Source of the DNA: Schmidtea nova
Taxonomy: Eukaryota
Reading direction: 5' to 3'
NCBI GenBank assembly: GCA_044892505.1
Contig: CM097883.1
Coordinates: 421,104,001-421,168,000, forward strand
DNA length: 64,000 nt
Part shown: positions 19,636 to 60,710 of the stretch, piece by piece
How positions within the stretch are numbered: position 1 is the first letter of the stretch
How the letters are laid out: each line of letters opens with the position of its first letter
Position numbers and translations under genes: made by a program
The notes under the pieces: model-generated
Databases searched by the model: none
What the model was told of the DNA's origin: nothing
What the model saw: the letters and a program-made list of their open reading frames with translations, nothing else

Positions 19636-19670
19636 AGTGCTTATATGTGGTTATATGTGGTTATATGTGA

Positions 19671-20790
19671 TTATATGTGGTCACTTCTCCGATACATGAA
19701 TGTTAGTAACGACTTTGTTGATATAATTAAACTCTTGTATACTGAAACAAGTTCATTTTATTGCTGCAATAAACTCAAAACACAAAGAATTGAAATTAAA
19801 CAAGGAGTCAAGCAAGGTTGTCCAATATCAATGATTCTCTTCGCAATTGCCATAAATCCTGAACTCAAAGCTACCACTTAATCAAACATCATTACATTCA
19901 TGATAGGCACATCTTCTGTATAAGTATTAGCATATGCTGACGACATTGCTCTTGTTGCAACAAATACTGCTGATTTACAAAAATTAATTGACGTGTGTGT
20001 TAATACTGCCAAAGAAAAATCAGATTCGAATATCGACTAGAAAAGTGTGCTTATATCGAATACATAAAAGCAGAAAGCATCAGCGAAATTTATGTCAATA
20101 AGAAATACATTAAGAAAATCACAAACAATGACTTTTATCAATATCTAGGCGTTCCAATAGGCAACAACAATGATCAAAGCCCGTATGAAATCGTGAAAAA
20201 AAGTCATTGAAGATACAAAGAAAATTGCAAACTCTGATCTTTTAGCTGGTAGAAACTCAAGGCTTACAAGATCTTTTTGCATTCTCGTTTGATATTCCCA
20301 TTTAGGACACGAAAAATTAAAACCAGTTCTCTTACAGATCCATTTCAAAATCGAAAGATTAATCTCAATAATACTAGTTTATTGAGAAGTCAGTTGAGAA
20401 GGATACTGAATCTTCCAAATCACTCAGAGATCTGTTATTTCTACAATTCTGTTGAAAATGGAGGAGCAGATTGCACTGATCTTTTAGATGAATATCACAC
20501 GCAAACAGTTGTGTACTTTTTCCTATTATTAACTTCGAATTGTGTGTATTCAAAAAAAAATAAACACAGATTTATTGTTGCTTTTAACAGGTCCAAGATT
20601 TGGAGTAAAGAATCCAACTCTTTCTCAAAGTTTGCAATCGATTAATGGAAAAGAAAGTAAACCTGGCCATCATAGCAGAAAAACAAGATATTACCGCTTA
20701 CGCACATCAATCGCGTACTTTAGCAGAGTTCACAATATCAAAATTCTATTTAAAACAGCACCAAAATTTTCCAACTTTCTAGTATAATGT
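19671..20790 (+). pseudogene. RT/thumb fragment of a NeSL/R2-clade non-LTR retrotransposon
   Basis: KQGVKQGCPISMILFAIAINP, LAYADDIA, YQYLGVPIG, HSRLIFPFRT, RRILNLP...YFY...GG. Same family as 52590-53750. Confidence 0.85.
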
Positions 20791-29132: not shown

Positions 29133-29263
29133 AGTAATGTAATGATTATTACAAAACAAGTTGTTTAAATAATCAACAAGAAGGAGTTGTTTTTAAAAAT
29201 AAAGATTAAGTTTTTCAATTGTTAAATTGTTTATTTTTGATGTCAGATATTAAGATAGTTACT
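29133..29263 (+). repeat. 5' LTR (AGTAA...TTACT)
   Basis: Matches 33552-33682 base for base by eye; the last T overlaps the PBS. Confidence 0.95.
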
Positions 29264-30436
29264 GGCGACCACGCCGAAATTAACGCAGTTAAAACACGTA
29301 GCCAAGATAAGAAATCAGCAAGAGATGTTTTACCAAAGAAGGCTCAAGAAATCTTAGACGTTGAAATTCGTAGATACGATGGAAGATGCGCTAAGGAAGC
29401 AGAAAAATGGATTAAAGCGATCGATGAGTGGATTATAAGAAATGATCTAAAACGGACGGAAGCTTTTGATTTGTTGTTATCGGAAGAAGCGTCAATCTTG
29501 TGGAAGAATTTCAAAACCGAAGAAACATCAGAGGATGATGCTAGAGAATGGTTTATAGAAACATTCACTATAAAAAAGTCAATATTAGATAAAATCAAGG
29601 ATCTTTCAACTATCAGACAAGATGACAACGAACGTTTTGCTACTTTCGAGATTCGAGTTCTCAAAATCGTGGAAGAAGTTTTATATTCAGGATTGTCAAA
29701 GGAAGAAATCGTAAGTGAGATTATTATGCACAGAGTGAGAGATAAAAGATTAAAAGAGGTACTTACGAAGAAACCTAAGATGGATCACAAAGAGAGAAAT
29801 GATTTAGCAAAAATTTATGAGAAAACAGAGGACAGATCTGAAGAAATTTTGGCAGTGAAACCAATGTCATATGCGGAAAAATTCAAAGAGGGTCTAAGAA
29901 ATCGAGAGGAATTGGAGAGAGGAAAGCAAAGACCATATATACGGAAAGAACCCAGAAGTTTCGAAAACAAAGTGGAATACGGAAGATATGAACAACCAGA
30001 GTCCCAAAGATGGAAAGGACAGCAGACGGGTGAAAAGAAGATGCCAACTGTATCTCTGAAACATATAGCCAAACGGTTATACAACAGACATATGGGGTTA
30101 CCAGAACCAAGGCCATGCGAACTCAAATCAGGTCAATGTTTTTGTTGCGGAGAAGAAGGACATAGGCGTTTTGAATGCCCTTTAAAGGATAAATGTTTGA
30201 TTTGCGGGAAGAACGGACACAATTTTAGAAATTGTAACCTTCTGAATGAACGACGAGGTTACAACACCAACGTCAAGAAGATATCATGTATACACGAAGA
30301 AATGGAGGATCAGCAGATAAATAGTTATGATTTTAGAGATGAATACGGAAGTGAGTGTCAACCACATGAAGTAGAAGTAAGAAAAAATGCCAACGATCCC
30401 ATCGCACACATTTCGTCAATGGGATCGCAGATATAA
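29219..30436 (+). CDS. gag: gag with two CCHC zinc knuckles
   Basis: CFCCGEEGHRRFEC and CLICGKNGHNFRNC; the true start lies downstream of the LTR/PBS (the track start is inside the LTR). Confidence 0.9.
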   Translation: MLNCLFLMSDIKIVTGDHAEINAVKTRSQDKKSARDVLPKKAQEILDVEIRRYDGRCAKEAEKWIKAIDEWIIRNDLKRTEAFDLLLSEEASILWKNFKTEETSEDDAREWFIETFTIKKSILDKIKDLSTIRQDDNERFATFEIRVLKIVEEVLYSGLSKEEIVSEIIMHRVRDKRLKEVLTKKPKMDHKERNDLAKIYEKTEDRSEEILAVKPMSYAEKFKEGLRNREELERGKQRPYIRKEPRSFENKVEYGRYEQPESQRWKGQQTGEKKMPTVSLKHIAKRLYNRHMGLPEPRPCELKSGQCFCCGEEGHRRFECPLKDKCLICGKNGHNFRNCNLLNERRGYNTNVKKISCIHEEMEDQQINSYDFRDEYGSECQPHEVEVRKNANDPIAHISSMGSQI

Positions 30437-30454
30437 ATGAAGAAAATCGAAATG
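30382..30454 (+). promoter_or_regulatory. Predicted programmed -1 ribosomal frameshift signal
   Basis: A_AAA_AAT at 30382-30388 in the gag frame; 5-nt spacer; 9-bp stem CGATCCCAT/ATGGGATCG; loop CATTTCG complementary to CGAAATG at 30448-30454; the pol (-1) frame is open from 30370. Confidence 0.75.
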
Positions 30455-30468
30455 ACAGGAGAAGAAGC

Positions 30469-32664: not shown

Positions 32665-33542
32665 GACACGTTGTAAAAGAATGTAGTATATGTGCGAGAA
32701 GGAAAATAGATCAAGGAAGAACGAAAGAACTTTTTATTCCACGCGGAAGTAACGGGTTTCTGGAACAAATCGTAGTTGATGTAGCACACATGGAAAAGAC
32801 AAGGTCCGGAAAGAGATATGTGATTGTCATAATAGATCGGTTCAGTAAATTAGTATGCCTAACTGCGACAGAGAAGCAAGACGAAATGACGATATTCCGG
32901 ATTATACTTCATAATTGGATTTATAAATATGGAAAGCCAGAAAGTATTCTTTCAGACAGAGGAAAAAATTTTGAAGGCAGATATATGAAAGAGAAATTCG
33001 AAGTTTTAGGGATTCGTCAAGAATTCTCAGCACCATATCAACATCAATCAAATGGATTGGTAGAAAGAGTAATTCGCACGATGAGAGATCTACTGGTGAC
33101 TTCAATTCTTAGTAACAACAGGCGATATGAATGGTGCGAGATACTTCCAAGGGTGGAATTCAGCATCAATGCGACGTTCCAAAGCGCAACTAAATATTCT
33201 CCATTTGAGATTGTGTATGGACGGAAAGTGTCACTTCATGCCAATGGACAAGGATCGGAGATCAAAGGCCAAAGAGTTGACGAGAAAGTGGTTCAGAATT
33301 CTAAGCTAGCTGCAGATAGAATGAGAATTTTAGAAAAAGATCGAAGAGGTAAACGTTCTTTTGAAGTAGGGGAGGAAGTATTGGTTCGACGGGAGCCACA
33401 CAGAAGGAATAAGAATGACATACAATACGATGGACCATATAAGATTGTTAGATTTTTGTCGGAACACCAGGTCGAGCTACAATTTCCGGATGCTAGACGA
33501 CCGAGACGGATAGAATGGCTGAAGAGATGGCATCAAAGTTGA
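32589..33542 (+). CDS. pol part 2: integrase in the -1 frame
   Basis: Second half of HHCC (CSIC), VDVAH, SDRGKNF, NGLVERVIR, YDGPY. Confidence 0.93.
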   Translation: MSCGGKKVFHYMENSFFWPKMCETVRHVVKECSICARRKIDQGRTKELFIPRGSNGFLEQIVVDVAHMEKTRSGKRYVIVIIDRFSKLVCLTATEKQDEMTIFRIILHNWIYKYGKPESILSDRGKNFEGRYMKEKFEVLGIRQEFSAPYQHQSNGLVERVIRTMRDLLVTSILSNNRRYEWCEILPRVEFSINATFQSATKYSPFEIVYGRKVSLHANGQGSEIKGQRVDEKVVQNSKLAADRMRILEKDRRGKRSFEVGEEVLVRREPHRRNKNDIQYDGPYKIVRFLSEHQVELQFPDARRPRRIEWLKRWHQS

Positions 33543-33682: not shown

Positions 33683-35356
33683 TCCATAATTACGTTAAAC
33701 GTGGTTATTTTATATTTTTCGATTGGGTTTTGAAATTCATGATCTTCGGTTATTTCGTCGGGAATTCTCTTTCGTCGTCTAAATCTCTCTTCTGGTATAT
33801 CTTCTTCGACAATTATTTCACAATTTTCCTCTTCAAGTAGTGTATTCGCACGTTTAGCAAATGAATTTGCCTTTTCTTTAACATTTCTTTAAAATCACGT
33901 GAAAATTTTTTTAAAGAATTTAATGTGGAAGTTACCATGTTATAAGCTGTTAAATAATTTAAATTGCTGGTTTGTAAATATTTAGATAACGGTCCAATAT
34001 ATTGAAAAATTTTTAAATAAATATGCGCTGTAAGTATAACTTTAAATTTCAATAAAGACTCCATTAGTGTTGATGCAGTGTGTCTAATTTGAGCATTAAA
34101 AGATACATTAGACACAAAATAATTCAAAGTTATCAATAAGTCTACATATAATGAGGTTTCTTTGTTATCATAATGCCCAAAAAATTTTTTAAGTGCTGTT
34201 TCTTTTGCTGACCATCTTGTTTCACCTATAACGTTAAGTCTCTGATACCTTATTTTTACACTGGTGTTTTCCCAAACATCCATACGTTGATAAGATTCTC
34301 TTAGAAATACGGCACACGAGTTGAGTAATTGAAAGAGAGAAGTACCTTCAATTACCGAACTAGTAGCATCTGTGACAACTAAATTCAATACGTGGGCATA
34401 ACATCAAACGTGAATTTGACCAGGCGATTCTTTACTTAACCAACTGGTGAAGCCATGATACTGTCCACGCATGTTTGCTGCTCCGTCTGTCGAATTACCG
34501 ATACAATTTTTAATATTTAATCCACTGTTTTTAATAAAAGTACTAATTAAATTGCACATGTCTTTCCCTGTAGACGATTTGCAATTTAAAACAGCTACTA
34601 CACGTTCATAAATATTTCCCTTTACATATCGGACAACAATTGAGCACTGATCCTTTTGTGTTATGTCCTGTGTGGTGTCAATTTGCAAAGAAAAAATACC
34701 TGCTTCCTGTATATCTAACAAAATGCTATCTTGAATTAATTTTCCACTGGCCAAAATTACCTGGTTAATAGTAGATTTTGAAATTAATGAAATGAAAGTG
34801 TCTCTACCTTTAGTTCCCGCAGATGTCTCATTATTTTTCTTCTTTTCTTTGATGACTCTTGATAAATGTAATTTTAAAACAGCGTCATATTTAGAGAGTA
34901 GCAATATTATTTCTAAAAAATTACCATGGTCTTCTTGATTATTTTCAAGTGAAAGTGAAGAAACAGATTCAGATCGGTGAGCGCGAAAAGCTAATCCTCT
35001 TTTTCCAATTAATTTTACAACATCTATAATTCTTTCCAATACTTGCTTTCGTTCAATAATATTTTTCTGACGTATGCTTCCTTCATTTGTGAACATTAAA
35101 TTATAAATATCTTTGCCTTTAGATTTGAGCATATGACAATTTACACAATTTTCATGAGTTTTACTATTTTCATGTTCTTTAACACGTTGCAAAGTGTGCC
35201 TCCAGTCCGTCATTCCACGATTTACAAACGAACTCTCGTTTGTAATATCACTGTAAGCCAAACACATGGTACAAAATAGAGCATTTTTTTCCAAACTATA
35301 TGATAGCCAACGCCTATTTACTTTATCTTCTGTATAAAATATTAAATTTGGTTTAA

Positions 35357-35568
35357 CCCTTAATAACCTAGAGTTTGATACCAATTTTTTAAACCTAATG
35401 TTCACATTACTATTAGTTTTTTTTATAGGTTGGCTGTTCGTATTTTACTGCTGTATAATATTCTTTCCAACGAAATTTAAAAAAAACAAATGTCATTATT
35501 GTCATTATCATCAAGCAAACACAATAATATTAAAAAAAAATCACTTTCGTAAATCAGGCTACTAAGGG
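35357..35568. mobile_element. piggyBac-type MITE, 212 bp, inside the hAT ORF
   Basis: TTAA at 35353-35356 and 35569-35572; termini CCCTTAATAACCT and AGGCTACTAAGGG. Excision restores the frame (NLPF-KPNLIF). Confidence 0.85.
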
Positions 35569-37616
35569 TTAAAAGGTAAATTAGTAATGTCATCAATGGT
35601 TGGTTGGCATGGATGTTTTTTAAAAAACTCTTCATAATTTTGATTTCCTGGCCTTATGAAATAATTATCTGATAAGAAATTAAACATTTTGTTTGTTGGT
35701 GTTATCATTTCATTATTGGCTTGGGTGGAAGTTGAAACTGAAGTTATTTCTTCGAGAATTGATGTTTCAACTTTATCTGCGCCAATGGGACACATATTAG
35801 TATCATCATTCCTCGAAACTGATGAACTTAAATCCAAATCCTTATTCAAATTTTCAATATCAAATGCATTGATCTTAGAAGTTGAAGCAAACATATCACT
35901 TAATTTAAGAGTATTTTTAGCAGCTTCTTGCATGATTTTTTGTCGCTCTTCTCTCTCTTTTTGAGCGCCTCCTTTAAATTTTCTTTTTTCCATTTTTTCT
36001 AAATAATAAACGTAAATAATTTAACAATATAATACAATAAGTATTTATTTAACCCATTAACGCCTAAACAGAAATTAATCGATAATTTATTCTTAAAGTT
36101 TGCATTGATAATTGCATTGATAATTAGAATAATTGATTCGTTATACGGCTTTTCGCTTTGCGGCCAAGTTTCGCAGAACATATCTAGGCCGTAAAACGAG
36201 GTATGGGTGTATTGTATATTATTTCATTTATTTATTTTTTTTAATCAGAAGAAATAATTTAATAGTTTACATATCGCCGGCCTCGCGGCCTCTAATTTGA
36301 CCAGCTCACCGGGAAATGTCCTGGTGTCCCGCCGGCCCAGTCCGCCACTGTAATAGAGAATCACATTATTATTTTAGAAATATCTAATAACGCAATACTC
36401 TCATTATTATGGTATAGATTATTCATTCTATTATCATTATTGTTATAAAGTTATTGACGAAGTTGACGTTTGGTAATAAATCAAAATAAATATTTAAACT
36501 ATTGTTATTATTAGTATCAACTATTGGAGGGCCATAAATTAGAATAAATATTCAAAATAAGGCAACAGCAAAAATAAATTATTATAGAATAAATAATAAT
36601 TTTAAAAAATCAATAAATATCGGTCAATAAATGTAAATGCTTGCTGTCTGTTGGGGTCAGGTGCTATTTTGCCTCATTGATGTTGACAATTGCTGATTCG
36701 ATTTTTTTGGATTGTGGGATCAAGGGGTAGCTGGTTCCCAGTTGCTTGTCAATCTTACGGATGTTCCCATTGATTTCATTTTGAGTTTGTTTTTGTCGAC
36801 ATTTCTCAATACTTGCTTGCCTTTCAGATGAGTGAATCTTCGATAGATACTCATGCAAAATGGAATTGGTGAGAGGCCTGCGCCTGAATTTCTGGCTCTG
36901 CGGATGAAATGATATCAGTGATTCGCATAGTTAATCAATTTACTTTGTGCTCGATCACATCCAATTTCTTGGCTAAATCAGTCAGATCTGGGGCTGTCTC
37001 GTCTTTCGGTTCCCGGGTTTTCCCATATGGGGTTAAATAGGTGCAATTTTAAATTCTTTCGGTTGCATGCTGTCGAATATATTCTCTGGCATTTAGATGG
37101 TAATTTAGAATTAAAATTTTCAATGGGAATTCTAAAAATAATTTAAAAAAATTTTTAAAATTCGAATAAATTATACAAATTATACAATTATACAAAATTA
37201 CAAAATTAAAAATAATGAAAAAAATATTCACTAAAAAATGAAATAATTAAAACATTATGAAATATTAAAATAAATAACTACTAACTGCTCCCGATATAAA
37301 AGTTGAAACGATTAGAATTGTAGATAAAGAAATTTCCAAGCGTACACACAGAGACATTAAAAATTTCTTAAATTTTAACATTTTCAAAAAAAATTTTAAA
37401 AAGTGAGAAAAGAAGGAAAAATCCCCATTAAATTTCGGGAAGGAAATAAGAGCCATCAATGAGATGTAATTTCGAAGAACGCATCTCATTGGTTCCAGGC
37501 AGAAAATTTGGCGACACAAAAAATATTGTTTGAGATGAGCTAAAAGCTCATTAAATTAGGAGCATAGCTCCAAAGAAATAAAATTATAATAATGAGCTCA
37601 AATAGAATTTTAAAAA

Positions 37617-37915
37617 NNNNNNNNNNNNNNNNNNNNNNNNNNNNNNNNNNNNNNNNNNNNNNNNNNNNNNNNNNNNNNNNNNNNNNNNNNNNNNNNNNNN
37701 NNNNNNNNNNNNNNNNNNNNNNNNNNNNNNNNNNNNNNNNNNNNNNNNNNNNNNNNNNNNNNNNNNNNNNNNNNNNNNNNNNNNNNNNNNNNNNNNNNNN
37801 NNNNNNNNNNNNNNNNNNNNNNNNNNNNNNNNNNNNNNNNNNNNNNNNNNNNNNNNNNNNNNNNNNNNNNNNNNNNNNNNNNNNNNNNNNNNNNNNNNNN
37901 NNNNNNNNNNNNNNN
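37617..37915. other. Assembly gap (299 N)
   Basis: Run of n. Confidence 1.
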
Positions 37916-40634: not shown

Positions 40635-40850
40635 CTAATGCTGGTAAAAAGATTATTGAAAAAATAACTGTGATATATCCGACGTGATCAGCGGTTGGTG
40701 AAAATAATTGTGATAAAGAGAAATTATTCAACGAAATTGTGAAAAGGTAAATTATTGATTATTGTAATAAATTTGAATTTAGATTTTGTGCGATTTGAGA
40801 AAATAATTTATTGAAATGAATTTATGAAATCAGACTAAAGAGAATCAATA

Positions 40851-42139
40851 ATGAATAGTGAAGATTTATTAGTTTATGTTGACAATGAATGCTATGATGT
40901 TCTCAGTTCTCAAAGATTACCGATAGATCAATACAGAGGAGATCCATTTTCATTTTTCGATTTTATGAACGAATATCATATGTATGCTACAGCTTATGGG
41001 TGGACAGAGGCAAAAATTTTACAGAGATTTCCGTTATATTCAACTGGAGTTGCTCGTGATGTATGGTGTATGATTGACAAAAAGAAAATTGGAAATGAGT
41101 GGACAAAATTAAATGATGCAATGGAAGATAAATTGGTATGCAAAAAAGTTAAAAGAATCATGAGAAGAAATTTTTATGAAAGAAAACAAAAATATGATGA
41201 ACCTGTTCTTGATTATGGGTATGAATTAATTTCATTAGCTAAAAAGGCATTTAGGGTAGACTCAGTTGACAATAACAATGTTAAAAATCTTATAATCGAT
41301 AACTTTTTAAATGGTTTTAATAAAACTTTGAAACTTGTGTAATTGAGTTTAATGATGTATTTGATTTAATAAGAAAAGTTTCAAAGTTTGAACAGCAATT
41401 AATTGAGAATAAAGTTATTAAAAATTACAATGAACCTTGCTATAAAAGTGGTGATCAATCCTGTGATAATGAAACGAATCCTTTCCTTTGTTGTTATGAT
41501 ACGAATAATGGAAAAAGTTTATTAACAAAAAAGGAGTTTAAATTAAAAAACGGAAGTTTAGAATATGAATTTTGGTCAGATGATAAAGTTGTTGAATTGC
41601 AAAGTATTCAGTATGAATTGAGCTGTTTTACAAAAAATGAAAATATTTATTTTGTTAATAAATGCTTGGTCCTACCTCAATTTGTTTCAGTAAAAGAAGA
41701 AGAAATTGTAATTGACAGCCGTAATCGATTTATTATAAAAATATCGAATCTCAAAACATGTAATGTTCATTCCACAATTGTTTTCAATAAATCCATTCCA
41801 TATGAACTCATAACCGTCACGCATGATACAGTTCATATTAACTTACCAATTTACAATAATGAGTTGATGTCAAGTACTAGAAACAATGAAAAATTGAAAG
41901 ATAATAAATTTATTTTGGAAGTTATGGAAGATCAAGATGAATGCAGAGAGCTCAAAAACCATGTATGTATTATTGATGAAAGATTTAAATGTTTGATTGT
42001 TTTATATGTGATTGTTACATTAATATGGATTCAGTTAAAGTTTTTCGAGAATAGACATAAAGAAGAAATAATTAGACATCATTTTGAGTATATATGTTCA
42101 TCTATAAAGAATTACATTTGCATTCCAGTGATTGTCTAG
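40851..42139 (+). pseudogene. Retrotransposon gag-like ORF with long unassigned C-terminal extension
   Basis: AYGWTE...GVARDVW...RKQKYDEPVLDYGYELISLAKKAF...FLNG (Retrotrans_gag-like); break at 41342, then an open frame to 42139. Confidence 0.7.
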
Positions 42140-45631: not shown

Positions 45632-48445
45632 TATCGCACCAAATTAATTTGATAGCGGCAATTCAAAAAAAAATTATGCACATAAGTGCTGGTAAAAGTT
45701 AGGCACATAAAAGCCAAAGTTGCAAAGGGAGAAGATCACAAAAGTCGGATTGATGCCTGCACTTTGCAAAGCACTGCAAATGCCAAGATAATTTTTAATA
45801 AATCCTCAGGGTATGAATTTGCACAATTAATTATTGCAGAAAGAAATTATCAAAAAGTTAGGCATGTTAATGCCATAACTGGGAAAACCTTTGAATTTTC
45901 ATGATGTCAAACATTAGGTCATGTCAGTAAAGAATTGGAATTGACGAAGCAAACATAATTCACTTTTAAATGCAAAAAAAATTTTTTATTATCAACCACA
46001 TTGAATAAAGTAATTTTTTTGATTAATGCTGGGTTCATGGAGGGGTTAGATTGAAAATTTCTAATAGTGGCTAGGGATTCCCCGTCCTTGACCATGCATA
46101 AATGATTACGATTCTCACTCGAGCGCCCTTGATTATTTCCCTTGATAACCAAGTTGGTGATGCGCAAGGTGATTGAACAATGATGGACAGGTGAGCTCTA
46201 TTGCTAGAACTACTCCCCATTTATGTTCACAAGTTCACGCTGCCGTTAGGAGGACTTACGCTTAGTTTACGAATTATTTAATTTATTTGTTATATGCTGT
46301 GAATTTATTATTTAGTTTACTAAAACTGTGCTAATTACAATTAACCATGTTTTGCTTAATTATATTTAAATTAACGAAAAATTTATGAGTCACAACAGAG
46401 ATTTCAGTACAAATATTAATCATTTTATTGATTACAACAAAGGAGTGAAATTTCCTTCTGGCGGGAAAATTTCAGCTAATAATTCAAGTTCGGTCAGTCT
46501 TGATAAATTGTCGACTTGGGTCTGAAATCGTTGCGCTAAAAGCTTCTTCTGCCTCCTTCGTTTTTGTCCGATTCGCTTTCGCTTTAAATGCGTATGGCTC
46601 GGGTGTGCACCATTGGTGACCAGTTGCGAGTTTTCCGTTGTTGTTCCAACTAGCCCTTCGACGTCTGTACCAATTGAGCATACCGGTTTTTTCTCGGATA
46701 TCCAACTCTGGTACGTCACTGGCCGGATCTGCGATTTCAGTTCCTTCTCGATATAGGTCGTGGTCACGGAGTGGAGGCATTTCCTCAACTCAATCTTTGT
46801 TGCCTCCACTCCAGCTTGTAGTCCTCGGCGGTTCTCTGAGCCCGCTCTGTTTTGTTGATTTGGTCTTTCATCCGCGCAGGAGCAAACCAACTCTTGCGCA
46901 GATATGTTAACTGGGCTTCTGTCTTAGATAATTGAGCCTTCACTTAGGCCAATTCTTTATCTTGGGCCCTTTTGATCCGCCACAACTTGTCGATCTCATT
47001 CTGTTGGTGTGAGTCTGAGCTCATACTAAAATATTTTAAACAATGATTATTCGTTTCCCTATTCACATTATTGATATTATCCATACAACTGGGCAAACAA
47101 AATCACAAAACAAAACAACGGAAGAAAGCCTTTTAAACAGCTATTTATTTGTACCAAATCACTATGAATTACGGAGAGTGCGAATTTTTTTTAAAACATA
47201 TGAAATGTGGAGCCTCTGATTGATGGGCGATTTTCGTAATTGGTGTAGGGAAATTTTCGGTTGATTCCGCATAAATTCATTTCCAAGAGATCTAGGCGAG
47301 ATGCGCTATTGAAGATCTAATGCAGCTTTTTCGCTTTGAGGGATGTGTCCCCAATAAATGATCTTGTCGGGTTCTCGGTTTGAGTCGTTTATCACCGCTA
47401 TCAGCCGTCCGAACTTGGATGAATAGTTCCGACTAGAATTCGGCCATCCCAGCCCTCCTCGATACAATATGCGATCGTTGTTATTAGCCCAAATAGAGAA
47501 CGGGCATTTTCTTCCTAAATATCTGCGCCATATAAACATTTGGGCGCTGACCCAATATAGGAGACCTCAAATCCTTCAGCCCTTTTGCATAGAATTTAAC
47601 ATCGACTGACTCCGACGATCGTCTATAATTGATTAACATTTGCTCCACTCTTCCTACTAACATCTGTGTTATTTCCAATTTAAATTCATGATTTAGATAT
47701 TAATTAATTTATCACAAAATTATGCGGAAATCAACTTATTAATTAACCCCGTCGCGATGTACCACGATCGGAATATATTTGTATTTAATTTATGTATTCC
47801 TGCGCTGTACAGCGATCAGGATATAAAATTTCTTATGGCATTCCTGCGCTATCTACAGCGATCAGGCTATAAAGTTTTATATAATTCAACCGGAACTTGT
47901 TTACGCGAAGTGTGATTAGGCATCGTATTGATCTTTGGTCTAATTCATTTTTAATTTAGTTTACTACACGACTATAGTGAACGATGTCAAGAATGCTTGG
48001 TAAGTGATCGATTAAATTTAATAATTGCATTTTTCATCACAAATCTGTCTAGTTGATATCGTTGGTAATTGAGATGTGCACACAATGGTCATACCTTCGA
48101 AGGTGTATGGTGTGTGCTCAACCTTCAAGGGGTCTGAAACCTTCAACCTTTTTCAATCCTTATAATGTACATATCATTCGAAAGGTCATTGAGAGGTAAG
48201 TATGATGGTCATACCCTTGAAGGTGTATGGTGTGTGCTCGACCTTCAAAGGGTGTAAAACCTTCAAACCTTACAAGTTATATATCAAACAAAAGGTAATT
48301 TTCAGACGAGTATGGTGTGTGTGTTATGTAATTCTTTCAACGACTTTCCTACCCCAATTCAAACAAACACATTGCAATCCATGTGCAACGAAACAAAGGC
48401 TAATGGAATTTTATTTATAAATATTCATTAAATAAAATATATAAT

Positions 48446-49619
48446 ATGATATATCAGAAGATATATTATTTTGCAAACCCATTCCTGGAAAGACCACCTC
48501 CATTGAAATTTTTAATAAATTGGACGGTTTTGTTGAAGAAAACGACATTTCGTGGAATAATTGCATTGGACTGTGTACTGACGGAGCTCACTCAATGTCC
48601 GGACACAAAGCAGGTCTTCAAGCATTGGTGGAAAAAAAAGCACCACATGTTATCTTGACGCAATGTATGCTTCACAGAGAAGCTCTAGTGTCAAAAAATA
48701 TGAGCGAGGAACTGAACAACATTTTCACAAAAATTTATAAAAATTATAAACTACATTAAGAACAGTCCCTTGAGAGCTAGGCTGTTTGCAAAACTTTGTG
48801 TTGATATGGAAGCTAATTATATTTCCCTTCTGTATTATTGTGAATTTCGCTGGCTATCTCGTGCAAAAGTCATTCAAAGGGTGTTTGAACTCAAAGAAGA
48901 AATAGCAATCTTTCTCGAAGAAAACCATCATGAAGAGGCACTTTTGTGGACTTGAAACTTGAAACTTGAAACTTACCTTTACTTGGATTCTTTAAAGGCC
49001 CAATACATTATTTGGCGAAATTTTATATATTTATTATATATGTATATGGATTTTTATGTCTTTCTGTTATGTGGGTATATATTTAACGATAATAAAGCAT
49101 ATTTTGTATTTCGTTATTTATTTTGGCATGGAAATTATAACTTATTAGAAAACAGACCATTTCGTTATTTTTAGCACTTCGAGTTTAAAATTACCAAATA
49201 AAAAATAACAAAATTTTAACTCTTTTACATAATAACAAGAAATGTCGAATTCCAGGCATTCTTTACCTTTAAACATCAAGATACTTATAACTATACATCT
49301 AAAAAAAATAGGCAGCTACTGAGACACACAAAAGCTCCGGGCCTTTAAAGATCCCACGCGACCGACGATGTAAGGAAAATGGGCGCTACCGACGTAGCGT
49401 TAATTAGTAATTTAATATACAAATAAATATACATGTTCGTATGTTATAGCAAAACCTTGTTTTTATTCTGTTAATTGCAGTTTTAATTTTTTTTTGTAAT
49501 AAAGTTATTTTTGTTTAAAAAGTGTTTTTCTTATTATATATAATAAAAAAAAGATGGGAACGCGCCAAGAAAAAAATTTTTTGGGGGAGGCTCGGTGGTA
49601 TAAAGGTTGGAAACCGCTG
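48446..49619 (+). mobile_element. hAT Buster/Charlie relic
   Basis: CIGLCTDGAHSM...CMLHREAL; LYYCEFRWLSRAKV; right TIR AAAGGTTGGAAACCGCTG ending at 49619. Confidence 0.85.
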
Positions 49620-51560: not shown

Positions 51561-52589
51561 TTGCTTTTAAAGGAGAACGAGGAGTCAGAAAGTAGACCGA
51601 CTTAAATTAATAACCCAACAAAGTGAATAGTTGGAAAACGTGCATACAAAGGAAAATTAAAGAATATTTAAATTAAACGTATCAAAACAAGAATTAGCCG
51701 AATTAGAAAGAGCAAAGGCCTATCGAGTAAACACCCAAGTCAAATTAAGAAATTAATCATATTGATTTACCAATTATTGAATTAGAGGCATCAGTTAGTG
51801 ATAGTTAATTCAAGGTGTTGTACAAATTTATGCTATTCTTCATGTAGTATCGTAATAAACACTGTTTAACAACCGACGGTGATAAAAAATTGATAGTATC
51901 TTTGTAATTTTTGTAACCATTTGTAATAATCAATAAAGGTTTATATTGTCTGAAATTGTTATTTTGCTTGTCAATTAAAGCACGCTTAGAGTCAGGTAAT
52001 TAATTGATAATTTTATAATTCAACATCATTCCAATAGCCCAAAATAATTTTATCTGAGTAAACAATTTTATTTGATTTTGACAATAAAATATTGTTTTTC
52101 TTAAGCAATTAGGTATTTCTTATTTATTAATGGTAATTTAATTAAAAATAAATTCAATTGTTATCATTTTATTAAGAACTAAATACTTTAATTTATTTAA
52201 AAATGTAAAAAGACATTCGTAAGTTGGTTCTTGGTTGATTGATAGATTTTTTTATGCCGAGACCGTTCATACTTTGTTGGCTAATTGGAAGTTGGTGATT
52301 CTATAGAACTGGTTGTTGTTAGTTAGTGTGTATAGAGTTAATAGATAGTTCGTTATTTAATTAGTAAATGGCTAATGCAAATAACTAGTTGGTAAGTATG
52401 TAGATCTAGTAAGTTATTGAGTACTTAGTTGGTTAGTGTGGAAAGTGGGTCATTAGTTTTTTTAATGATTAATAGACGGCTAGTCTGTATAACTAGTTGG
52501 TAAGTAAGTACTTGGTGTGTGCTTGAATAGTGGTTAAAGAGTTATTAGGTGGTTGGTTGATATGTATACGTTTTATTCCTAGAATTAGT

Positions 52590-55500
52590 TAGTTCTAAAG
52601 GGGAAGATCAAGCGAGAATGGATAAATACTTTGTAAGCTTTAAGTTTTTGCCACCCACGCAAATCCGAATCAGCAAGTTTTTTGGTGTCTTTGAGTGCCT
52701 CTAGTAGAATGTCATAAGGATTTTTGTTAGTTCCTTCGCCCACTTGCACACCTGGTATTGATAAAATTCATTAGATAGTAGTTTTTTTATTTTAACTCCA
52801 TTGATTGAAATTTCACTGTCAATGTGAATTCTAGGAAGTTGCAGATAAGCACATTTCTCTGGCCGATATTCAAAGCCTATATTGGTTGCAGTTGTGACAG
52901 CAGTTTCAAGGAGTTTTTGCAGGTCATTAGAAGTTTTAGCTAAAATTGCGATGTCATCAGAATCCGCGAGAATTTTGACAGTTGATTCTTCAATAGTAAA
53001 AGCATCACAGACCGTTCTGGAAACAACTTCCAACACAGGATTAATCGCCAAAGCAGACAAAATCATGGAGATGGGACATCCTTGCTTAACACCCTTTTTA
53101 ATTGGGATTTTTGGTGTCAAAATAGGATCACAACTATAGAAGGAGCTCGTGTCAGAATATAAAAGTTGTAAGATCTAGTTGTAAAATCTTCACTTACCCC
53201 AGTGTATCGGAGTAAAGACAACATGTAATCATGTGGGACACTACCAAAAGCATCCTTTATGTCGAGCCAAGCAATGGAAAGAGGACAGTTTTTACTATAT
53301 TTGGAATGTTCCAGGGCAGCAGACAGAATCGAGTTGTGTTCAACGTTACCTTCATGTTGGGAGCCACCTTTTTGTCCAACATGTAATAGGTTATTAGAGT
53401 TTATTCAGCGTGTAAGACGAGAGGCTAGACAGGACGCACAAACTTTGTAGATGACGGATAGCAAGGCAATCGGGCGCCAGGATGATATATCTGAATATTT
53501 ATCATCTTTATTAGGTTTCGGAATTAGAATGGTTTTGAAGACCTTCCAACTGTCAGGTATGGACTTTTATGTAATGATTTTGTTGAACAAGAAAGTAAGT
53601 ATATGACATCAGGATCTAGACGCAACAAGTCACTATATTGTAATCCATCAATACCAGGACTAGTGTTGTCAGCCCTCCTAAGTTCATACATCACTTCCTT
53701 ATTCGAGAAGCATCACAGAGGAAGTAAATTTTGAGAGTGTTTACAAGTCAATGCCCATGTACAGGTGTTTCATGCGAAAAGTTTTTAACTATGTTCTGAA
53801 AAGTTGGTCGAGTAGGTACATCGAAATTGTTGATGACCTTATTGACAGCTGACTTCATATCTTTTATGAATATCAATTTATTTTTGCTAATTTTAGAAGT
53901 TTTAATTCTGGTTCCCAAGTATGGTCTTTTAGCTGGTTTCACTTTGTCAGGGAATTGCTCCATAATCGCATGAATAATTTCATTTGTACTATAATTTGCA
54001 CATTTAATTAAAAATAGTTCAGCATTATTTTTCTTTTGTTTTATCGGAACGCTCAATATAGTTTTATGAATAATTTTAGTGTTACCCGGGTTTTCTATAT
54101 TATCCTATTGCCTGACAAAGATAATCAAAGAACCAACCACGTCTCCAATCTAGCGCAAGTTAAAATTTCCAAGGGGCAAATTTTTCGAAAAATTATTAAT
54201 AAACGCACACAAGAGAATTTTACTAACTAGACCTGAGCTGCGGATTTCATGGGGACATTCAGAAAGATTCAAAACGCGGCCAGGTGTATCTTTTATGTCA
54301 TTTATTTTATTTCTCAGAATTCTACAAGTAGACAGATAATTATCGATCACAGTCAAAGATGTTGGGTTTACAAGATAAAAGGTGTCAACACTAATCAAGA
54401 ATGAGCAAATTTTCACGATGTTTAGGGGGAGCAACAATCGCAAAGATGATTTGTGATTTGCATACATTTTTAAAATTCAGAAAATCATTTATGTGTTGAG
54501 TACAATCGTCAAGAATAGCCGTGTACATGGTCGCACTCAAAAAAAAAGTCTTGGGTAAATTTAAATTATCAAAAAACATTGAAATTATTTTATCCGAAAT
54601 TTTAGTATTAAGTAAGTTAAGATTCTGAGAGATTTCATTTGTTTCCATTAATTTTATTGAGTTTAGTGATTTGTGTATATTTAAAAAATGAATAACTTTA
54701 TTAAACAAAAAATTCTCAAGAAGCTCAATAAAAACCGACGGAAAGAGAATTGTATCATCAGAGATGTTGGGCACCAGTTCCAAGCCGTGGTCTGGTTTAA
54801 AAAAATGTTTGTTGAAAGAAAGAACTTATTCAAGTAGTCAGTAATATTTTCGCCGATGCCAAGTAAACGGTCAGAAATATTTTTTCTTTATTGTTAAAAA
54901 CGTAACTTGCACCATGTGTAATAGAAAAAAGATCTAAACACCAATAATTATCATTTGGGATAACACTGATGACATGGTTAATCCCCAAGAAATTTTTAAA
55001 CGTGACATTTTCTCTAATAAATGAGTTATTTCTAGAGATTATATTTAGTGTCAGTTCTTGTGACAAGACCAAGATGTCTTTATGGTCTTTAAACCATTCG
55101 GCAATCAAAGACGTTTCATAAGGAAGATGTGGTAGTGTTTATTAGAAATATTTAGAGTTGTGGCTTTTTTCACTCTCTTAAGGTTAATAAGTTGAGATTC
55201 ACCACCTCCAGATGATTTTTGGACTATGCTATTTAAAGTAAGTTTAAATTGGTGGACATCTTTTCTAATATTTTCTATAAAATCATCAGGAAATTTTTGC
55301 CATGTACCACTTATCATCATAGCATAAGCACAGATGTAGGGCCCACAGTCATAGTTATTATATTGGTAGACAAAGTTTTTATGTGGGTGGAAAAATAGTG
55401 CAGCTTTAAGGTTAAAAAGACTATTCAAAGCGATTTTAGTTTGAAGAGCGGCGGTTCTATTGGTCAACGAATGGCGGTTGTTAAAAAGAGGATATACAAA

Positions 55501-58238
55501 GTATGAAGTTAAAGAAGTTTTACAATACACAAAAAGAATCCAATGAGTTTTATGAATATTTATTGTACATAGTAGAGTTTGCGCAGATAATGCTCTGTCT
55601 GTCATTCGAAAAATGGTTTCGCAAAGATTTGCCCGTAAAATTTCTATTTGAAAGCATTTTATTGGAGCAAATTTAAGGTCATTGATGTGACATTCAAGGT
55701 AGTTATCAATGTCATCATCAGTAAACCATATTTTTGGGTCACGCAATATATTTGTGATTTTAGATGGTTTAAATTTATTGGAAAATGTGCTGTCTGCATC
55801 AGTCTCTGTTGAGATTGGGGCAGATATTGAGACTGGCGCAGGCACACAACTTCATTTGTTTTTGATAGCCGTACGTTTGGTTTTTTTAATAGGCTTTTTC
55901 GAAGAGTCTTTAGACTCACTATCAATTAGTTCAGGGTTTGATGTCATATTTTCATCAATATCGACAGGAAGCTTATTTGTAGGGTTTTCTACCAAATTGT
56001 AATTTATTTCAGCCTCATCGCATTCAGGAATAGAAAAAAGAGGCTCATTTACAAGCTTTTCAGTATTCTCATTATTCCCCATCACAGGCTTATCAACCTT
56101 TTCTATAGCAGGCTTTTTATTGACAGTGAGCTTAATAGAGCCTAAGATTCTAGATATACATTCGCTCATTTCTGGAGTACAAATCTTTCTACAGTATTGG
56201 GGAACGCGGAAGGTAAATTTATATTTTTAGAAGAAAAGTTTTTTTATCTCTAACAAGAAAGAATAAAAGTCTTTTAGCTTTCAAGGTGTTTGAGTTATTC
56301 AAATCGTCTTGGAATTCGTTAATTCCACGTCCTATATTTTCAAGCGCCGTTAGTTGTTGTCCTTTATTTGGCAAAAGATTATCGATAGAATCAAAGAAGT
56401 TGTTAATATCCGAAATAGTTTTTGGAGAGATGATGTTGTTTATCTTATCGATCTCTTGAAGTATAAAAGTTTGTTTGAGTCTTAGGAAGCGCTCTTGGCA
56501 GCTTGTGTTATAATAGGAGTTGGTAGGTAGTTTTTTAATTAGTTCCATAGCCCATGATTCAATATTATCGCAGCATAGGGAGTCGACAGTCTCAAGGTTC
56601 ACAATCGAGTGCATTAGGAAGCAATTATGAATGTAATTATAAACATATATATTAAATGATAAATTCATTTTGCATTTTAAAGATCCTTGTAAGTTAAGGT
56701 AATTTAAATAAAATATTGTATTAATTAATTTCTCAGGTGACTGAGGCTGTTTTAATAATTTATTGAACTCAATGTCCACATTTGACATTTCTACAAAGTC
56801 TAATAAGCCAAGATTACACATTATGTTAGACGCACCATTATCGTGCAGTCCAGCAGAGTTTTGAAAAATTTTATTTTTAATAAATTTACCCTCCACAAAT
56901 GAAATCTCATTAGGAAAATCTTTTATAGTTTTTAATTCTTTAATTAAATTAATTAATAAATCAGGATACCTGTCCGCGTTTTCCAATAAGTAGAGCTTTG
57001 GAATTTCAGGAAAGGATCTTGTTAACTCTTCCAATTCAGAACGATAAAGATCGATTGGGTTTAGATCAGTGCTGTCGCCAACTAATTCATCGGTATTAAT
57101 AAGGTCCAACAGAATAAACTTTCCATTTGAATACTTTATCTGAGAATTGATCAAGAAATTCGGCATCTCTCCACGTTGTTTTAGTTCGTCAAAAATTTTA
57201 TTAATTCGGATCTCCCGATCCTTAACATTTTTTATCGTAATAGTTCCTGAAAATGTATCTGTGAGGGCATAAAAAACTTCTTTATGCAAAGAGAGGCAGG
57301 AATAAACTTATTACCGTTACTCAAGGGTTCAGTAACTTTCGAGCCTATTAGGTAAGTTTTATTTTTAGATTTTTTACCATCAAGAACATTTTTTTTATAA
57401 TCCCAAGCTCAACCAAGACACAAATATATCTATTTTTATAAAAGAGCTTACTAAATCCAGCGATACCCAGCAAGTTGTCCGTTCTCGGAATCTTACCTAG
57501 TAAATAATTTATTTTAGAAAATGTCTGTGCTGATTCTCTTAATTTTATCAATTGAGAAAATTGTGAGAATGATTCTAAAAGTTTTTGTCTTTCTCTTTTA
57601 TAAAGATGACGTGGGAAACTTGTTGGGAAACGTTCAACCTTTGAAAAAATTTTTACAGGACTTTTATCATGATTTTTCCCATCAAACTTAGTCTAAACTA
57701 TAGAATTTGACTTCTTAAGTTCAGCAGACTTCTTATCTACTTCCCCTCCGACAAGAAAACTTTCATTTGATTTGGCATTGATCAAATTGTCCAGTTTAAG
57801 CTCTGGCAAATCAACTTTTTCTGAATCTGCTGAAATTAATTGAGATTTTTTATTAATATCATTTTTAAATAAACTAATTTTTATCTGGGACGGCTCAATA
57901 TTATCCCCTTTCAAGTCCTCGACCAGAGAAATCCTCCTATTACCTCCTAAAGTAAATCCATCAACATTTGGGTGCTGATCCACAGATTGAACACTATCAG
58001 CATTTCCAATCTCATACAATCGTTGCGATTTCGCAAGATTGTCAAAAAAGGAAACATTATTTTTATCAAAAAAGCGTGTTTCATTGTTAGTTAAATTAAA
58101 AAAAATAACAATCAAATCAAGCTTAATAAGAATTTTCTTGAATGAAGCATCTAGCTCGTTCACACGAGAGGAGAGAACACATTGTTCATCTCCAAATTTA
58201 CTTTCACCATTAGGCATTTGAGTTTTAGTTGGAATCAT
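52590..58238 (-). mobile_element. NeSL/R2-clade non-LTR retrotransposon, one long ORF broken by frameshifts, 3'-truncated
   Basis: Collinear minus-strand ORF pieces from 58238 down through a C48 protease to RT (SPGIDG, ILIPKP, WRPIALL, QKG, WLDIKDAFGSVPH, GVKQGCPIS); ends at HSRLIFPFRT with no REL endonuclease. Confidence 0.85.
55105..55845 (-). CDS. Ulp1/C48 (SUMO-protease-like) domain of the retroelement
   Basis: WFTDDDIDNYL, INIHKTHWILFV (His), FVYPL (Asp position reads Tyr, codon TAT), QYNNYDCGPY (Gln, Cys). Confidence 0.8.
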   Translation of the reverse strand: MPAPVSISAPISTETDADSTFSNKFKPSKITNILRDPKIWFTDDDIDNYLECHINDLKFAPIKCFQIEILRANLCETIFRMTDRALSAQTLLCTINIHKTHWILFVYCKTSLTSYFVYPLFNNRHSLTNRTAALQTKIALNSLFNLKAALFFHPHKNFVYQYNNYDCGPYICAYAMMISGTWQKFPDDFIENIRKDVHQFKLTLNSIVQKSSGGGESQLINLKRVKKATTLNISNKHYHIFLMKRL

Positions 58239-58823
58239 TTTTAAAAAGAGAAGAATCCTAACCTATTATGTCATAAAAGTGCATTGAGAACTAGTTCATT
58301 TTGGAATTTTAAAATATTATGTCAATCTTTTCTCTTTATAAAAATCCTCTGTGCTTTTTTTCAAACTATTTAATTGTATGTTTGATGCTTAACTTGAACT
58401 GAGTACATCTTTATGATTTTTAGATAATCTGAAAGATGTAAACTCATGTATGAAAAATCAGTGTATAAATATACAGAGAACATTTTTTTTACCTTTTTAG
58501 GTTTTTTTTGTGAGCGTATTATTTGTAATTTTTTATTCAGATTTTTATTTTATGACTGGAAATTTAGAAAATTTTATTTGTATTTAATCTAATATTTTAT
58601 TTTATAATAATTTTACTTTAAAATAATTTAATCTCTCGAAATTATTGTCCACTTTCAGATTTTCAAAAATTTAATATTTATATTAGAAACAGGAAAAATG
58701 GTAGAAGTATTTGATTTAGATGAAGACTATAGCATAGGGATAAATAGATATAGGCTTAATATACACATTGATCCATCCACTAACAATATCTCTCCTGATG
58801 AAAAGAACAATTTACCATCATAA

Positions 58824-60215: not shown

Positions 60216-60710
60216 CAGGCCCAGCCCAAGGGCCAGGCGACCTAGGCCATAGCCTAGGGCGCCTTTTTTTAGAGGGCGCCAAAATTTATTATAAACAATC
60301 AAAGAAAATTATAAAATAAGCCTCCAAAACTTTATATTTTGAAATTTATCTATGAAACCAACCAGTTTTTGTTAACATTATCTGTCTGGTACGTACTTTT
60401 GTCAAAATTTAATATTGTCAGCAAATCCATGCAAAAAGCTACATTTGATATGAGTAACGCCATCGAGCTTCTTCGGAATTGTAAGATTTTTCTAGAAAAT
60501 TATAGAGACTCCGGTTTTTCTGATGCTTTAAAATCGGCCAAAGATCTCGCTGCGCTATTAAACGTGAACGCACAATTTAAAGCTGTAAGAATCAGAAGGC
60601 GAAAAAAACAATTTAGTTATGAGTGTGACGATGAAACTCTAGATGTAAATGACCCAGAAAAATATCTATACATATATATTGATAACAGTCTCATTTTTAT
60701 TAAAAGGTAA
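60216..60710 (+). mobile_element. Internally deleted hAT: 5' end joined to a transposase fragment
   Basis: CAGGCCCAGCCC...CCTAGGCC...CCTAGGGCGCC terminus; ORF 60339-60710 VWYVLLSKFNIVSK...RIRRRKKQFSYE. Confidence 0.75.

Follow-up and report, generated by a model that had tools for sequence, protein, structure and literature searches.

NeSL-1 generally encodes one protein with N-terminal zinc fingers. Utopia is described as one protein with N-terminal zinc fingers as well, and NeSL-1 and Utopia-1_TSP, both from nematodes, carry a Ulp1-like protease upstream of the reverse transcriptase (RT), together with a C-terminal zinc finger and an RLE (PMC4640811). The locus studied here belongs to a family of Schmidtea nova, family A, which shares with them the Ulp1-like protease before the RT, the C-terminal zinc finger and the RLE; however, NeSL-1 and Utopia-1_TSP target SL1 or U2, whereas family A has no SL or U2 target (PMC4640811). 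It also differs from NeSL-1 and Utopia in having a separate 797-aa ORF1, ORFs split by a UGA, and three Ulp1 folds, two of which are dead. The nearest named RTs are nematode, scorpion, sawfly and tortoise proteins, and in a midpoint-rooted RT tree without labelled NeSL-1, R5 or Utopia, Caenorhabditis proteins fall into a different clade from family A. We provisionally place family A in the NeSL clade, perhaps nearest to the R5/LIN lineage, LIN being compared by description and by 3' termini. This agrees with the original prediction of a NeSL-like element with a Ulp1 protease upstream of the RT.

The planarian LIN families, above all LIN25_SM, are likewise RLE-type RT elements, and the AT-rich 3' terminus of LIN25_SM is by eye similar to those of B and Bt, two sister families of A (PMC4640811). 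Insertions of B and Bt lie immediately ahead of GAT/CAT, both within Pol III genes and within other repeats, which matches the behaviour of LIN25_SM in tRNA-Glu genes and Polintons, and target specificity varies among sister families in LIN as it does here (PMC4640811). The LIN targets given in PMC4640811 are 28S, tRNA-Arg and tRNA-Glu, and "5S rRNA" is absent from its main text, whereas a 5S target is found here; as far as its LIN accounts go, they describe no protease, stop-hairpin junction, 5S remnant or subterminal repeat. A literature search returned no description of the family A architecture; Repbase and the original R5 description, outside the scope of that search, could already cover parts of it.

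TART of Drosophila is an APE-encoding element of the jockey group. Like family A, it repeats its 5' UTR and ORF1 start subterminally in the 3' UTR (PMC1636488, PMC5537684); however, TART is telomeric, whereas family A is dispersed, RLE-type and holds a host 5S remnant inside the repeated region. We regard this likeness as convergence, not kinship. In the Cassandra and Ajax TRIMs, too, 5S-derived sequence sits within a terminal part of the retroelement that is present twice, but these TRIMs are small, non-autonomous and of the LTR type, with PBS/PPT (PMC10886601). Family A, by contrast, is an autonomous non-LTR element, and from its 5S remnant the first ~20 nt of the 5S sequence are missing. 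Our main reading, which we hold at a probability of roughly 0.6, is that the locus is a dead, 3'-truncated copy, that intact copies have the architecture described below, and that their 5' ends are likely rebuilt by a template jump of the RT to the 3' copy of the ORF1 start.

The window copy and its family

The window is a 64,000-nt stretch of S. nova (GCA_044892505.1, contig CM097883.1, positions 421,104,001 to 421,168,000). On the minus strand, its segment 52592–58256 is what decay and a 3' truncation have left of one copy of family A, a non-LTR family that is young and dispersed and encodes an endonuclease of the RLE type. The features are as follows.

52592..58256, minus strand: decayed family A copy, 93.4–93.8% identical over ~5.7 kb to full-length dispersed loci
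58153..58256, minus strand: 5' copy of the repeat core (~18 nt leader plus the first 29 ORF1 codons), which recurs in the 3' UTR of intact copies
55855..58238, minus strand: ORF1 remnant (797 aa in intact copies), dN/dS 0.19 versus family D
55852..55854, minus strand: in-frame UGA separating ORF1 and ORF2, in 40/40 family A copies and all sister-family junctions examined
55787..55845, minus strand: predicted 16-bp RNA hairpin, 6 nt 3' of the UGA, z -2.8 to -4.8
55237..55740, minus strand: Ulp1/C48 protease domain 1 (ORF2 aa 38-205), with His103, Asp120 (Tyr in the window copy), Gln163 and Cys169
55201..55209, minus strand: Gly-Gly-Gly motif after the protease, a candidate self-cleavage site, GG invariant in 8/8 aligned proteins
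54640..55113 (approximate limits), minus strand: Ulp1-fold domain 2 (ORF2 aa 247-410), no catalytic residues, by VIA-align and hhalign
54105..54618 (approximate limits), minus strand: Ulp1-fold domain 3 (ORF2 aa 418-590), catalytic Gln/Cys absent, by hhalign
52592..53740 (approximate limits), minus strand: RT and start of the thumb (RVT_1), broken by indels
19668..20654, plus strand: RT fragment of the more distant family C, ~65% DNA and ~50% ORF2 protein identity; not family A

As originally described, collinear coding remnants run on the minus strand from an ATG at 58238 down to 52592, and the RT is recognizable in the window (RVT_1, E 3.9e-11). Compared with the intact copy L033, the window copy has 13 indels, and it lacks the RLE, the 5S remnant and the 3' UTR. 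Of 39 fetched loci, 28 are full-length (5' end reached) and 17 are intact, many of the intact ones being near-identical (99.3–99.97% pairwise); natural intact copies such as L033 served as the reference instead of a consensus or a repaired ORF. Intact copies consist of ORF1, the in-frame UGA and its predicted hairpin, ORF2, and a 3' UTR that holds both a 5S remnant and a repeat of the ORF1 start. A single ORF of ~1,850 codons, as first proposed, is contradicted by the TGA at 55852–55854, which is present in 40/40 copies (39 loci and the window) and divides the coding region into ORF1 of 797 aa and ORF2 of 1543 codons. The N-terminal ~800 aa, taken for extra domains of one ORF, are instead a separate ORF1 that has homologs of similar length elsewhere. 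ORF1 and RT lie in one element in 28/39 fetched loci, and a host gene adjoining an RT fragment, the situation named beforehand as refuting the original prediction, is rejected because the two sit in the same element across full-length loci. The family was indeed mobile, but the fragment at 19671 that had been counted as a member belongs to a different family (~65% DNA identity).

ORF1 has a disordered N-terminus, a folded, mostly helical core (205-710) and an acidic/basic tail. Searches of Pfam, a word-indexed protein search, Atlas and Foldseek revealed no known domain, and the best structural match (VIA-align Z 6.9) is a single helical bundle. These structure-search negatives do not by themselves establish a new fold. 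A metagenome scan for DNA of relatives yielded one short locus among 155 candidates.

Family A copies are dispersed; they share a fixed 3' end, vary at the 5' end, and lie in AT-rich DNA that is unrelated between loci. Their insertion flanks contain no fixed target and no SL, U2 or rDNA site, the junction targets that had been suggested; spliced-leader genes were not found as an insertion site, family A lying in AT-rich DNA and its sisters in 5S/tRNA arrays. Sister B inserts into host 5S genes with an 18-bp duplication, at the point where the 5S remnant of family A begins, and Bt occupies a tRNA-Ala array and a second tRNA array, read by eye as Leu. The multicopy RNA gene targeted thus differs between the sisters (5S for B, tRNA for Bt), and family A has no such target. 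B is also dispersed within another repeat, C is dispersed, and no subterminal repeat was detected in either; the repeat is therefore not required for leaving arrays. Families A and D share the 5S-repeat design, with the 5S control region degraded in D, but in the ORF2 tree A branches with B/Bt (86% ultrafast bootstrap), and D falls outside that group. In the 7,140-bp arrays (L086-L089) and in L091-L092 the repeated unit takes in flanking DNA; these are tandem duplications, and rolling multimers were rejected.

The UGA-hairpin junction and the Ulp1 folds

The UGA between ORF1 and ORF2 is also kept in families B, Bt, D and C. As the sole internal stop of intact copies, located at one place in all families, it is not explained by decay or an alternative genetic code, and a -1 frameshift or an AUGA restart is rejected likewise, since ORF2 continues in frame 0 and the -1 frame meets a stop within 16-24 codons. 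In the predicted hairpin, whose 5' arm opens with an in-frame GUG, 96% of alignment cells are paired, and 27/32 stem positions are invariant over four families versus 4/22 loop positions. Synonymous divergence is 0.17-0.36 in the hairpin codons versus 0.49-0.84 in the other regions measured. Double-sided compensatory changes are absent among ten DNA rows. At the protein level only, two stem positions in ten homologs encode Ser with Asp (three) or Pro/Leu/Thr (5/1/1) with Gly, a pairing such as a compensating base change would give. Upstream of the first Met of ORF2, dN/dS is 0.085-0.114, which indicates that this stretch is translated.

A conserved in-frame stop, a conserved 3' structure and suppressed synonymous change together form the signature of programmed readthrough, and known readthrough stimulators share their geometry with this junction (PMC3159437). 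Alphaviruses, kelch and SEPN1 likewise show a UGA, a short spacer, a stem with suppressed synonymous change and a variable loop; the 6-nt spacer of this predicted signal sits at the lower limit of their 6-12 nt range (PMC3159437). The UGA and hairpin are thus likely a readthrough signal. No description of readthrough as an ORF2 expression route in non-LTR elements was found in the literature search; if readthrough holds, it would add such a route.

ORF2 of intact copies encodes, in order, one intact Ulp1 protease, the GG motif, two dead Ulp1-fold domains, the RT and the RLE. The window copy retains His, Gln and Cys of the Ulp1/C48 domain, with TAT at 55492–55494 where intact copies encode Asp, as the original prediction had it; its C48 score of 15.1 bits is below the Pfam cut-off of 20.7, which an intact copy passes at 26.4 bits. 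What had been called a ~350-aa unknown spacer can be assigned to two degenerate Ulp1-fold domains. By VIA-align, domain 2 matches SENP5/SENP3 at Z 13.2 and Ulp1 at 13.0, with an rmsd of 3.0-3.2 over 155-160 residues. Domain 3 has the same order of secondary structures and gives hhalign scores of 32.7 against domain 1 and 43.6 against domain 2, versus at most 16.3 for column-shuffled controls against domain 1. The RT of an intact copy (RVT_1, E 2.4e-28) carries the YADD of the non-LTR type, and its best solved relatives are R2 (E 2e-43) and then L1. A C-terminal CCHC finger is present in 9/9 family representatives, followed by the D...DxK motif of the RLE, read by eye and missing from the truncated window copy. 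The conserved GG after the protease lends indirect support to polyprotein processing.

Two alternatives bear on how these proteins are made and used. ORF2 could arise by termination-reinitiation at the in-frame GUG 6 nt past the UGA; the hairpin would then play the part that a downstream structure has in SART1, and no ORF1-ORF2 fusion would form. The GUG-CCU is invariant across all families, annotated starts of ten homologs fall at the matching position, and the nucleotide 3' of the UGA is a purine; SART1 requires a downstream structure, and ORF2 of L1 is made by unconventional reinitiation (PMC5972666). However, the location of the GUG in the stem accounts for its conservation and would mask it, the zero frame is preserved in all families, the frame opened by the AUG that overlaps the stop differs from that of ORF2 and ends within 16-24 codons, and the 6-nt spacer with a 16-bp stem is as in SEPN1, mosquito kelch having UGA-AGC (PMC3159437). 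We therefore consider reinitiation possible, but give it less than even odds. The protease and its two dead copies might, on the other hand, act mainly on host SUMO/ubiquitin-like conjugates to counter silencing, with the dead folds as binding modules. Purifying selection on all three Ulp1 domains (dN/dS 0.03-0.21 where estimable) and a protease fold closest to SENP/Ulp1/NEDP1 fit such a role, but an internal substrate is on offer in the conserved GG directly after domain 1, missing from one homolog, P0020, and we judge a mainly host-directed action unlikely. An anti-silencing role and self-cleavage at the GG are compatible with each other.

The 3' UTR and the 5' ends

The 3' UTR of intact copies opens with the 5S rRNA remnant (Rfam 69.8 bits, ~90% identity to host 5S), whose similarity begins near 5S nt 20-22, and it also carries the subterminal copy of the ORF1 start. 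By blastn, the 5' ends of 11/28 full-length loci fall within ATG -6 to -28, and 17/28 bear a 5' extension derived from the 3' region; the window copy is of the short type, with no extension. The extensions vary continuously in length up to ~2.2 kb and join ORF1 with the 670-nt 3' tail left out. In 16 young copies, they differ from their own 3' region at 7 of 2964 sites, against a permutation mean of 21.1 with none as low in 5000 permutations, a result to which sub-lineage relatedness contributes; for the repeat core alone, every permutation gave 32, leaving the test no power. The fixed 5'/3' differences at +69 and +74 are retained in seven copies, as expected if that part were copied from the RNA's own 5' end. 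In L040, one target duplication of ~50 bp encloses both extension and element; target duplications beyond chance are absent in 25/27 copies.

Without any template jump per cycle, the extensions could come from ordinary 5' truncation of a longer RNA, made by master copies in which a long 5' repeat is already present, or from two copies recombining, an alternative also named for TART (PMC1636488). The continuous spread of lengths resembles that of 5' truncations, and in L034 and L039 the extension does not fully match the 3' copy of the same element (3 and 2 differences). However, 11/28 ends cluster within ~22 nt near the ATG, sub-lineage variants occur in both repeats upstream of the ATG and not at +69/+74, and the long target duplication enclosing the L040 composite excludes two-copy recombination for that locus. 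Truncation or recombination is thus an improbable source of the extensions, compared with a template jump. As for the 5S remnant, it may be a neutral scar of an old 5S-array insertion, with no promoter or chromatin role, an explanation we rate only slightly short of even. It is degraded in family D, it lies upstream of ORF1 in only 11-12/28 full-length loci, and the T runs that follow it would stop Pol III; a weak argument against, counted by eye, is that the internal control region (~nt 50-97) of the young L033 has 1 change/48 nt versus ~6/48 nt in its flanks.

A putative cycle and its meaning

The template-jump reading enables us to propose a putative cycle. The RNA would start ~6-28 nt upstream of the ORF1 ATG. 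Most ribosomes would end at the UGA and yield ORF1p, and the hairpin would let a fraction read through. Cleavage of the fusion by the Ulp1 domain may follow at the GG, so that the RT-RLE protein would keep the dead Ulp1 folds. Nicking by the RLE and target-primed reverse transcription, known for the clade, would follow at AT-rich sites without a fixed target. On reaching the RNA 5' end, the cDNA likely anneals to the 3' repeat and copying goes on for up to ~2.2 kb, a mechanism proposed for the observed pattern of extensions. Such a jump would restore to ORF1 its upstream region, which often includes the 5S remnant. The arrangement possibly originated when elements sat in tandem within a 5S array and the DNA separating two of them was captured, which would let copies retain upstream promoter sequence outside the array.

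Rebuilding the 5' end from its own tail, if it occurs, would explain how family A spread beyond the arrays used by its closest relatives. The full scenario is a tentative one, and as a whole more likely wrong than right: the lineage would have left 5S/tRNA arrays by capturing the inter-insertion stretch (cut-site 5S gene, spacer and own 5' end) into its 3' UTR, an RT jump would regenerate the promoter region in each cycle, and the RT would be made gag-pol style through hairpin-driven UGA readthrough and self-processing by a SUMO-type protease. If true, an LTR-like solution was arrived at independently of TART. A protein of the RLE type that cuts one strand of 5S rDNA at a fixed position also deserves attention next to insertion tools built on R2.

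For R2 it is established that transcription is borrowed from the target gene, and site-specific RLE elements in general are believed to do likewise, which raises the question of how one of them turns into a dispersed family. With a 5S-targeting sister, a captured piece of the target and near-identical intact copies in one genome, both this transition and the TART-type jump can be put to a direct test.

The window copy and its family

On the minus strand of the window, the reading frames from 58238 to 52592 are collinear but broken, with a clear match to reverse transcriptase (RT) and a weak match to the C48 protease. As the original prediction stated, the catalytic residues His, Gln, and Cys of the protease are preserved, and TAT (55492-55494) stands where the Asp codon is expected. 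The element is real and belongs to a dispersed family, termed A. A DNA search of the source genome scored 40 of 1029 candidates, which are 93%–100% identical and include the window itself; 39 of the 40 loci were retrieved at about 10 kb each. In seventeen of these 39, ORF1 (797 aa from the ATG) and ORF2 (1543 codons) are both intact, and 24 young copies share pairwise identities of 99.3%–99.97%. Every copy that reaches the 3′ end closes with one common AT-rich terminus, and the flanks, many of them AT-rich or made of (TA)n, are mostly unrelated. Compared with these, the window copy is old (93%–94% identity, 13 indels against the intact reference copy L033) and ends after the RT; C/A-rich low-complexity sequence occupies 52240-52590 in place of its 3′ part. 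The other features of the window are as follows.

26102-28508 (minus), 29210-33539 (plus), 13865-16888 (minus): LTR-retrotransposon pol and gag-like frames, two of the three with RT, RNase H, and integrase matches
4773-6014 (minus), 33816-36020 (minus): DNA-transposon remnants, piggyBac-like DDE_Tnp_1_7 and DUF4371
48445-48759, 60315-60710: DNA-transposon remnants, hAT-like by eye
40839-42136 (plus), 8535-9179 (plus): open frames of 167-271 aa; two of them gave no match in a Pfam scan
37617-37915: the sole masked stretch, away from the element

The fragment at 19668-20654, previously taken as a second fragment of the same family, instead belongs to a more distant family, C, whose ORF2 is about 50% identical and whose copies often end in (ATT)n.

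Two reading frames and the UGA between them

For ORF1, Pfam, a word-indexed protein search, Atlas, and fold searches gave nothing usable. A full HMMER scan yielded 13 homologs, five of which are 814-960 aa long and end near the same point. The structure model has a confident core (205-710) and two disordered ends. Furthermore, the core is under purifying selection, with a dN/dS of 0.19 against sister family D; the comparison is saturated against sister family B and family C. For two ORF1 homologs the contig is exactly as long as that of an ORF2 homolog (8223 and 7638 bp), which hints that the two frames may be linked in other organisms. Judging from ORF1 proteins of other elements, ORF1 may act as an RNA chaperone or RNP protein. 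A C-terminal CxxC...CxxC motif is present in the distant ORF1 proteins P0001, P0003, P0006, and P0007 and in ORF1 of locus L151, and absent from families A and B.

The AlphaFold model of ORF2 (mean pLDDT 58.5, eight sequences in the alignment) revealed three domains with an identical order of elements. Domain 1 holds the catalytic set, and domain 2 aligns with SENP5, SENP3, and Ulp1 at Z scores of 13.0-13.2. Domain 3 scores 32.7 against the profile of domain 1 (at most 16.3 in 30 shuffles) and 43.6 against that of domain 2, with weak structural support (Z about 5). The Gln and Cys are missing from domains 2 and 3, which are nonetheless conserved. Behind domain 1, all eight aligned proteins have a GG motif, as do most of the other full-length homologs, with P0020 among the exceptions. 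Downstream lie the RT, a CCHC finger, and an RLE motif; among solved structures, R2 comes closest. We regard the anatomy of the element as a whole as shown, with high confidence. Of 106 RT regions, 104 entered a tree (two alignments were too short) that includes no labelled NeSL-1, R5, or LIN sequences; in it, the element families and 16 further proteins form one clade (support 0.98) separate from the Caenorhabditis proteins. A sister clade (P0031-P0033, P0036, P0040, and P0069) comprises shorter RT proteins of 874-1151 aa, several with a C48 domain.

Every one of the 40 family A copies keeps the TGA separating the two frames (55852-55854 in the window), and the same in-frame TGA occurs in B, Bt, and D, sister families whose ORF2 is 77%–79% identical, and in C (about 50%). 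The first Met of ORF2 is codon 81-87 in A, B, Bt, and D, and codon 37 in C; codons 38-83 are under purifying selection despite the late Met of the former four. A predicted hairpin begins 6 nt past the stop (z of -2.8 to -4.8 in five representatives). In its alignment, 96% of 160 cells are paired, with three one-sided and no two-sided (compensatory) changes, and over four families the stem is invariant at 27 of 32 positions and the loop at 4 of 22. Synonymous divergence at the hairpin falls to 0.17-0.36. Ten homologs from other sources open with the same two peptide motifs, and their Ser/Asp versus Pro/Gly pairing, seen at the protein level, would fit a compensating stem change. The geometry of the junction resembles that of known readthrough stimulators (PMC3159437), and expression of ORF2 by hairpin-linked UGA readthrough appears, from the sequence, slightly favored. 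Alternatively, ORF2 might be made by reinitiation at a GUG, a mode known together with a downstream structure in SART1 (PMC5972666); we regard this as a distinctly less probable, though serious, alternative to readthrough. Expression of ORF2 has also been described for TART and L1 (PMC5009743).

3′ repeats and 5′ extensions

Directly past the ORF2 stop, family A carries a remnant of 5S rRNA, which scores 69.8 bits in Rfam and shares about 90% identity with the host 5S gene; real similarity begins at about nt 20-22. It is followed by about 170 nt, a repeat of the ORF1 start spanning 29 codons, and a tail of about 670 nt. The 5′ end was reached in 28 of the 39 loci. Eleven of these, like the window copy, start 6-28 nt ahead of the ORF1 ATG; the other 17 bear an extension that duplicates what precedes the 3′ repeat, reaches as far back as the RT at its longest (about 2.2 kb), and is joined to ORF1 without the tail. 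Across 16 young copies, 7 of 2964 sites differ between the extension and the 3′ region of the same copy (homopolymer columns and three older copies were left out, and the extended copy L030 lacks the 3′ repeat). Permuted pairings gave a mean of 21.1 differences and none of 5000 as low as 7, a contrast inflated by sub-lineage relatedness. Fixed 5′/3′ differences at +69 and +74 are retained in seven copies. Against a template jump, the extensions of L034 and L039 mismatch their own 3′ copies at three and two sites, respectively. At one locus, extension and element together are enclosed by a duplicated target of about 50 bp, and another locus has a duplication of 9 bp; the remaining 25 of 27 copies were within the control range. 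The 3′ flanks of L034, L040, and L042 share one site of another repeated element, and two of these three are the copies with target duplications. Family D (L123-L130) shares the subterminal repeat; its extensions reach about 2 kb, and its 5S-plus-spacer remnant is more decayed.

Sister families in host arrays and the proposed cycle

The host 5S array, with a 318-bp unit, is interrupted by family B. The 3′ junction of B lies at 5S nt 21/22 in all eight array junctions listed, with 5S nt 1-39 upstream in all 10 of those listed and an 18-bp duplication. At L075-L083 (8.12-8.20 Mb on C2), three changes recur in this upstream piece at each of the 10 junctions listed, as though it were carried along by the element. 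A 522-codon ORF unrelated to the element family adjoins the end of the array (L084:7156-8721, plus strand). Since several adjacent units each carry a B interruption, a stretch of 5S from nt 22, spacer, and the next element's 5′ end exists in the array; A and D carry that stretch in their 3′ UTRs, and D retains a spacer piece too. In the ORF2 tree, A groups with B/Bt at 86%, and therefore the 5S design shared by A and D may stem either from a single capture with later recombination or from two captures. B is also dispersed (3′ junctions of L134-L142), always ahead of the same GATT-starting repeat followed by short GC-rich tandem repeats; the GATT-starting repeat is a second target of B. Bt lies in a tRNA-Ala(AGC) array and an intron-bearing tRNA array (Leu by eye) at L132 and L133, with many copies clustered at 598.0-598.35 Mb on C1. 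No 5S remnant or repeat was detected in family C. Because B and C are dispersed without the repeat, it is not required for leaving arrays.

Among known systems, planarian LIN elements target 28S, tRNA-Arg, and tRNA-Glu (PMC4640811), and on visual comparison the 3′ ends of LIN25_SM therein look similar to those of B and Bt. Other elements target Pol III genes (PMC5911963), and 5S sequence occurs in TRIM LTRs (PMC10886601). In the literature listed by our searches, outside Repbase and the founding papers on NeSL-1 and R5, no description of this architecture was found. TART has the same subterminal-repeat design, for which a template jump was proposed (PMC1636488); its repeats are also described in PMC5537684. 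We propose, with a probability of about 0.6, a combined mechanism in which ORF2 would be expressed by UGA readthrough, the product would cleave itself at the GG motif, and the RT would jump to the 3′ copy of the ORF1 start, rebuilding the 5′ end of the element.
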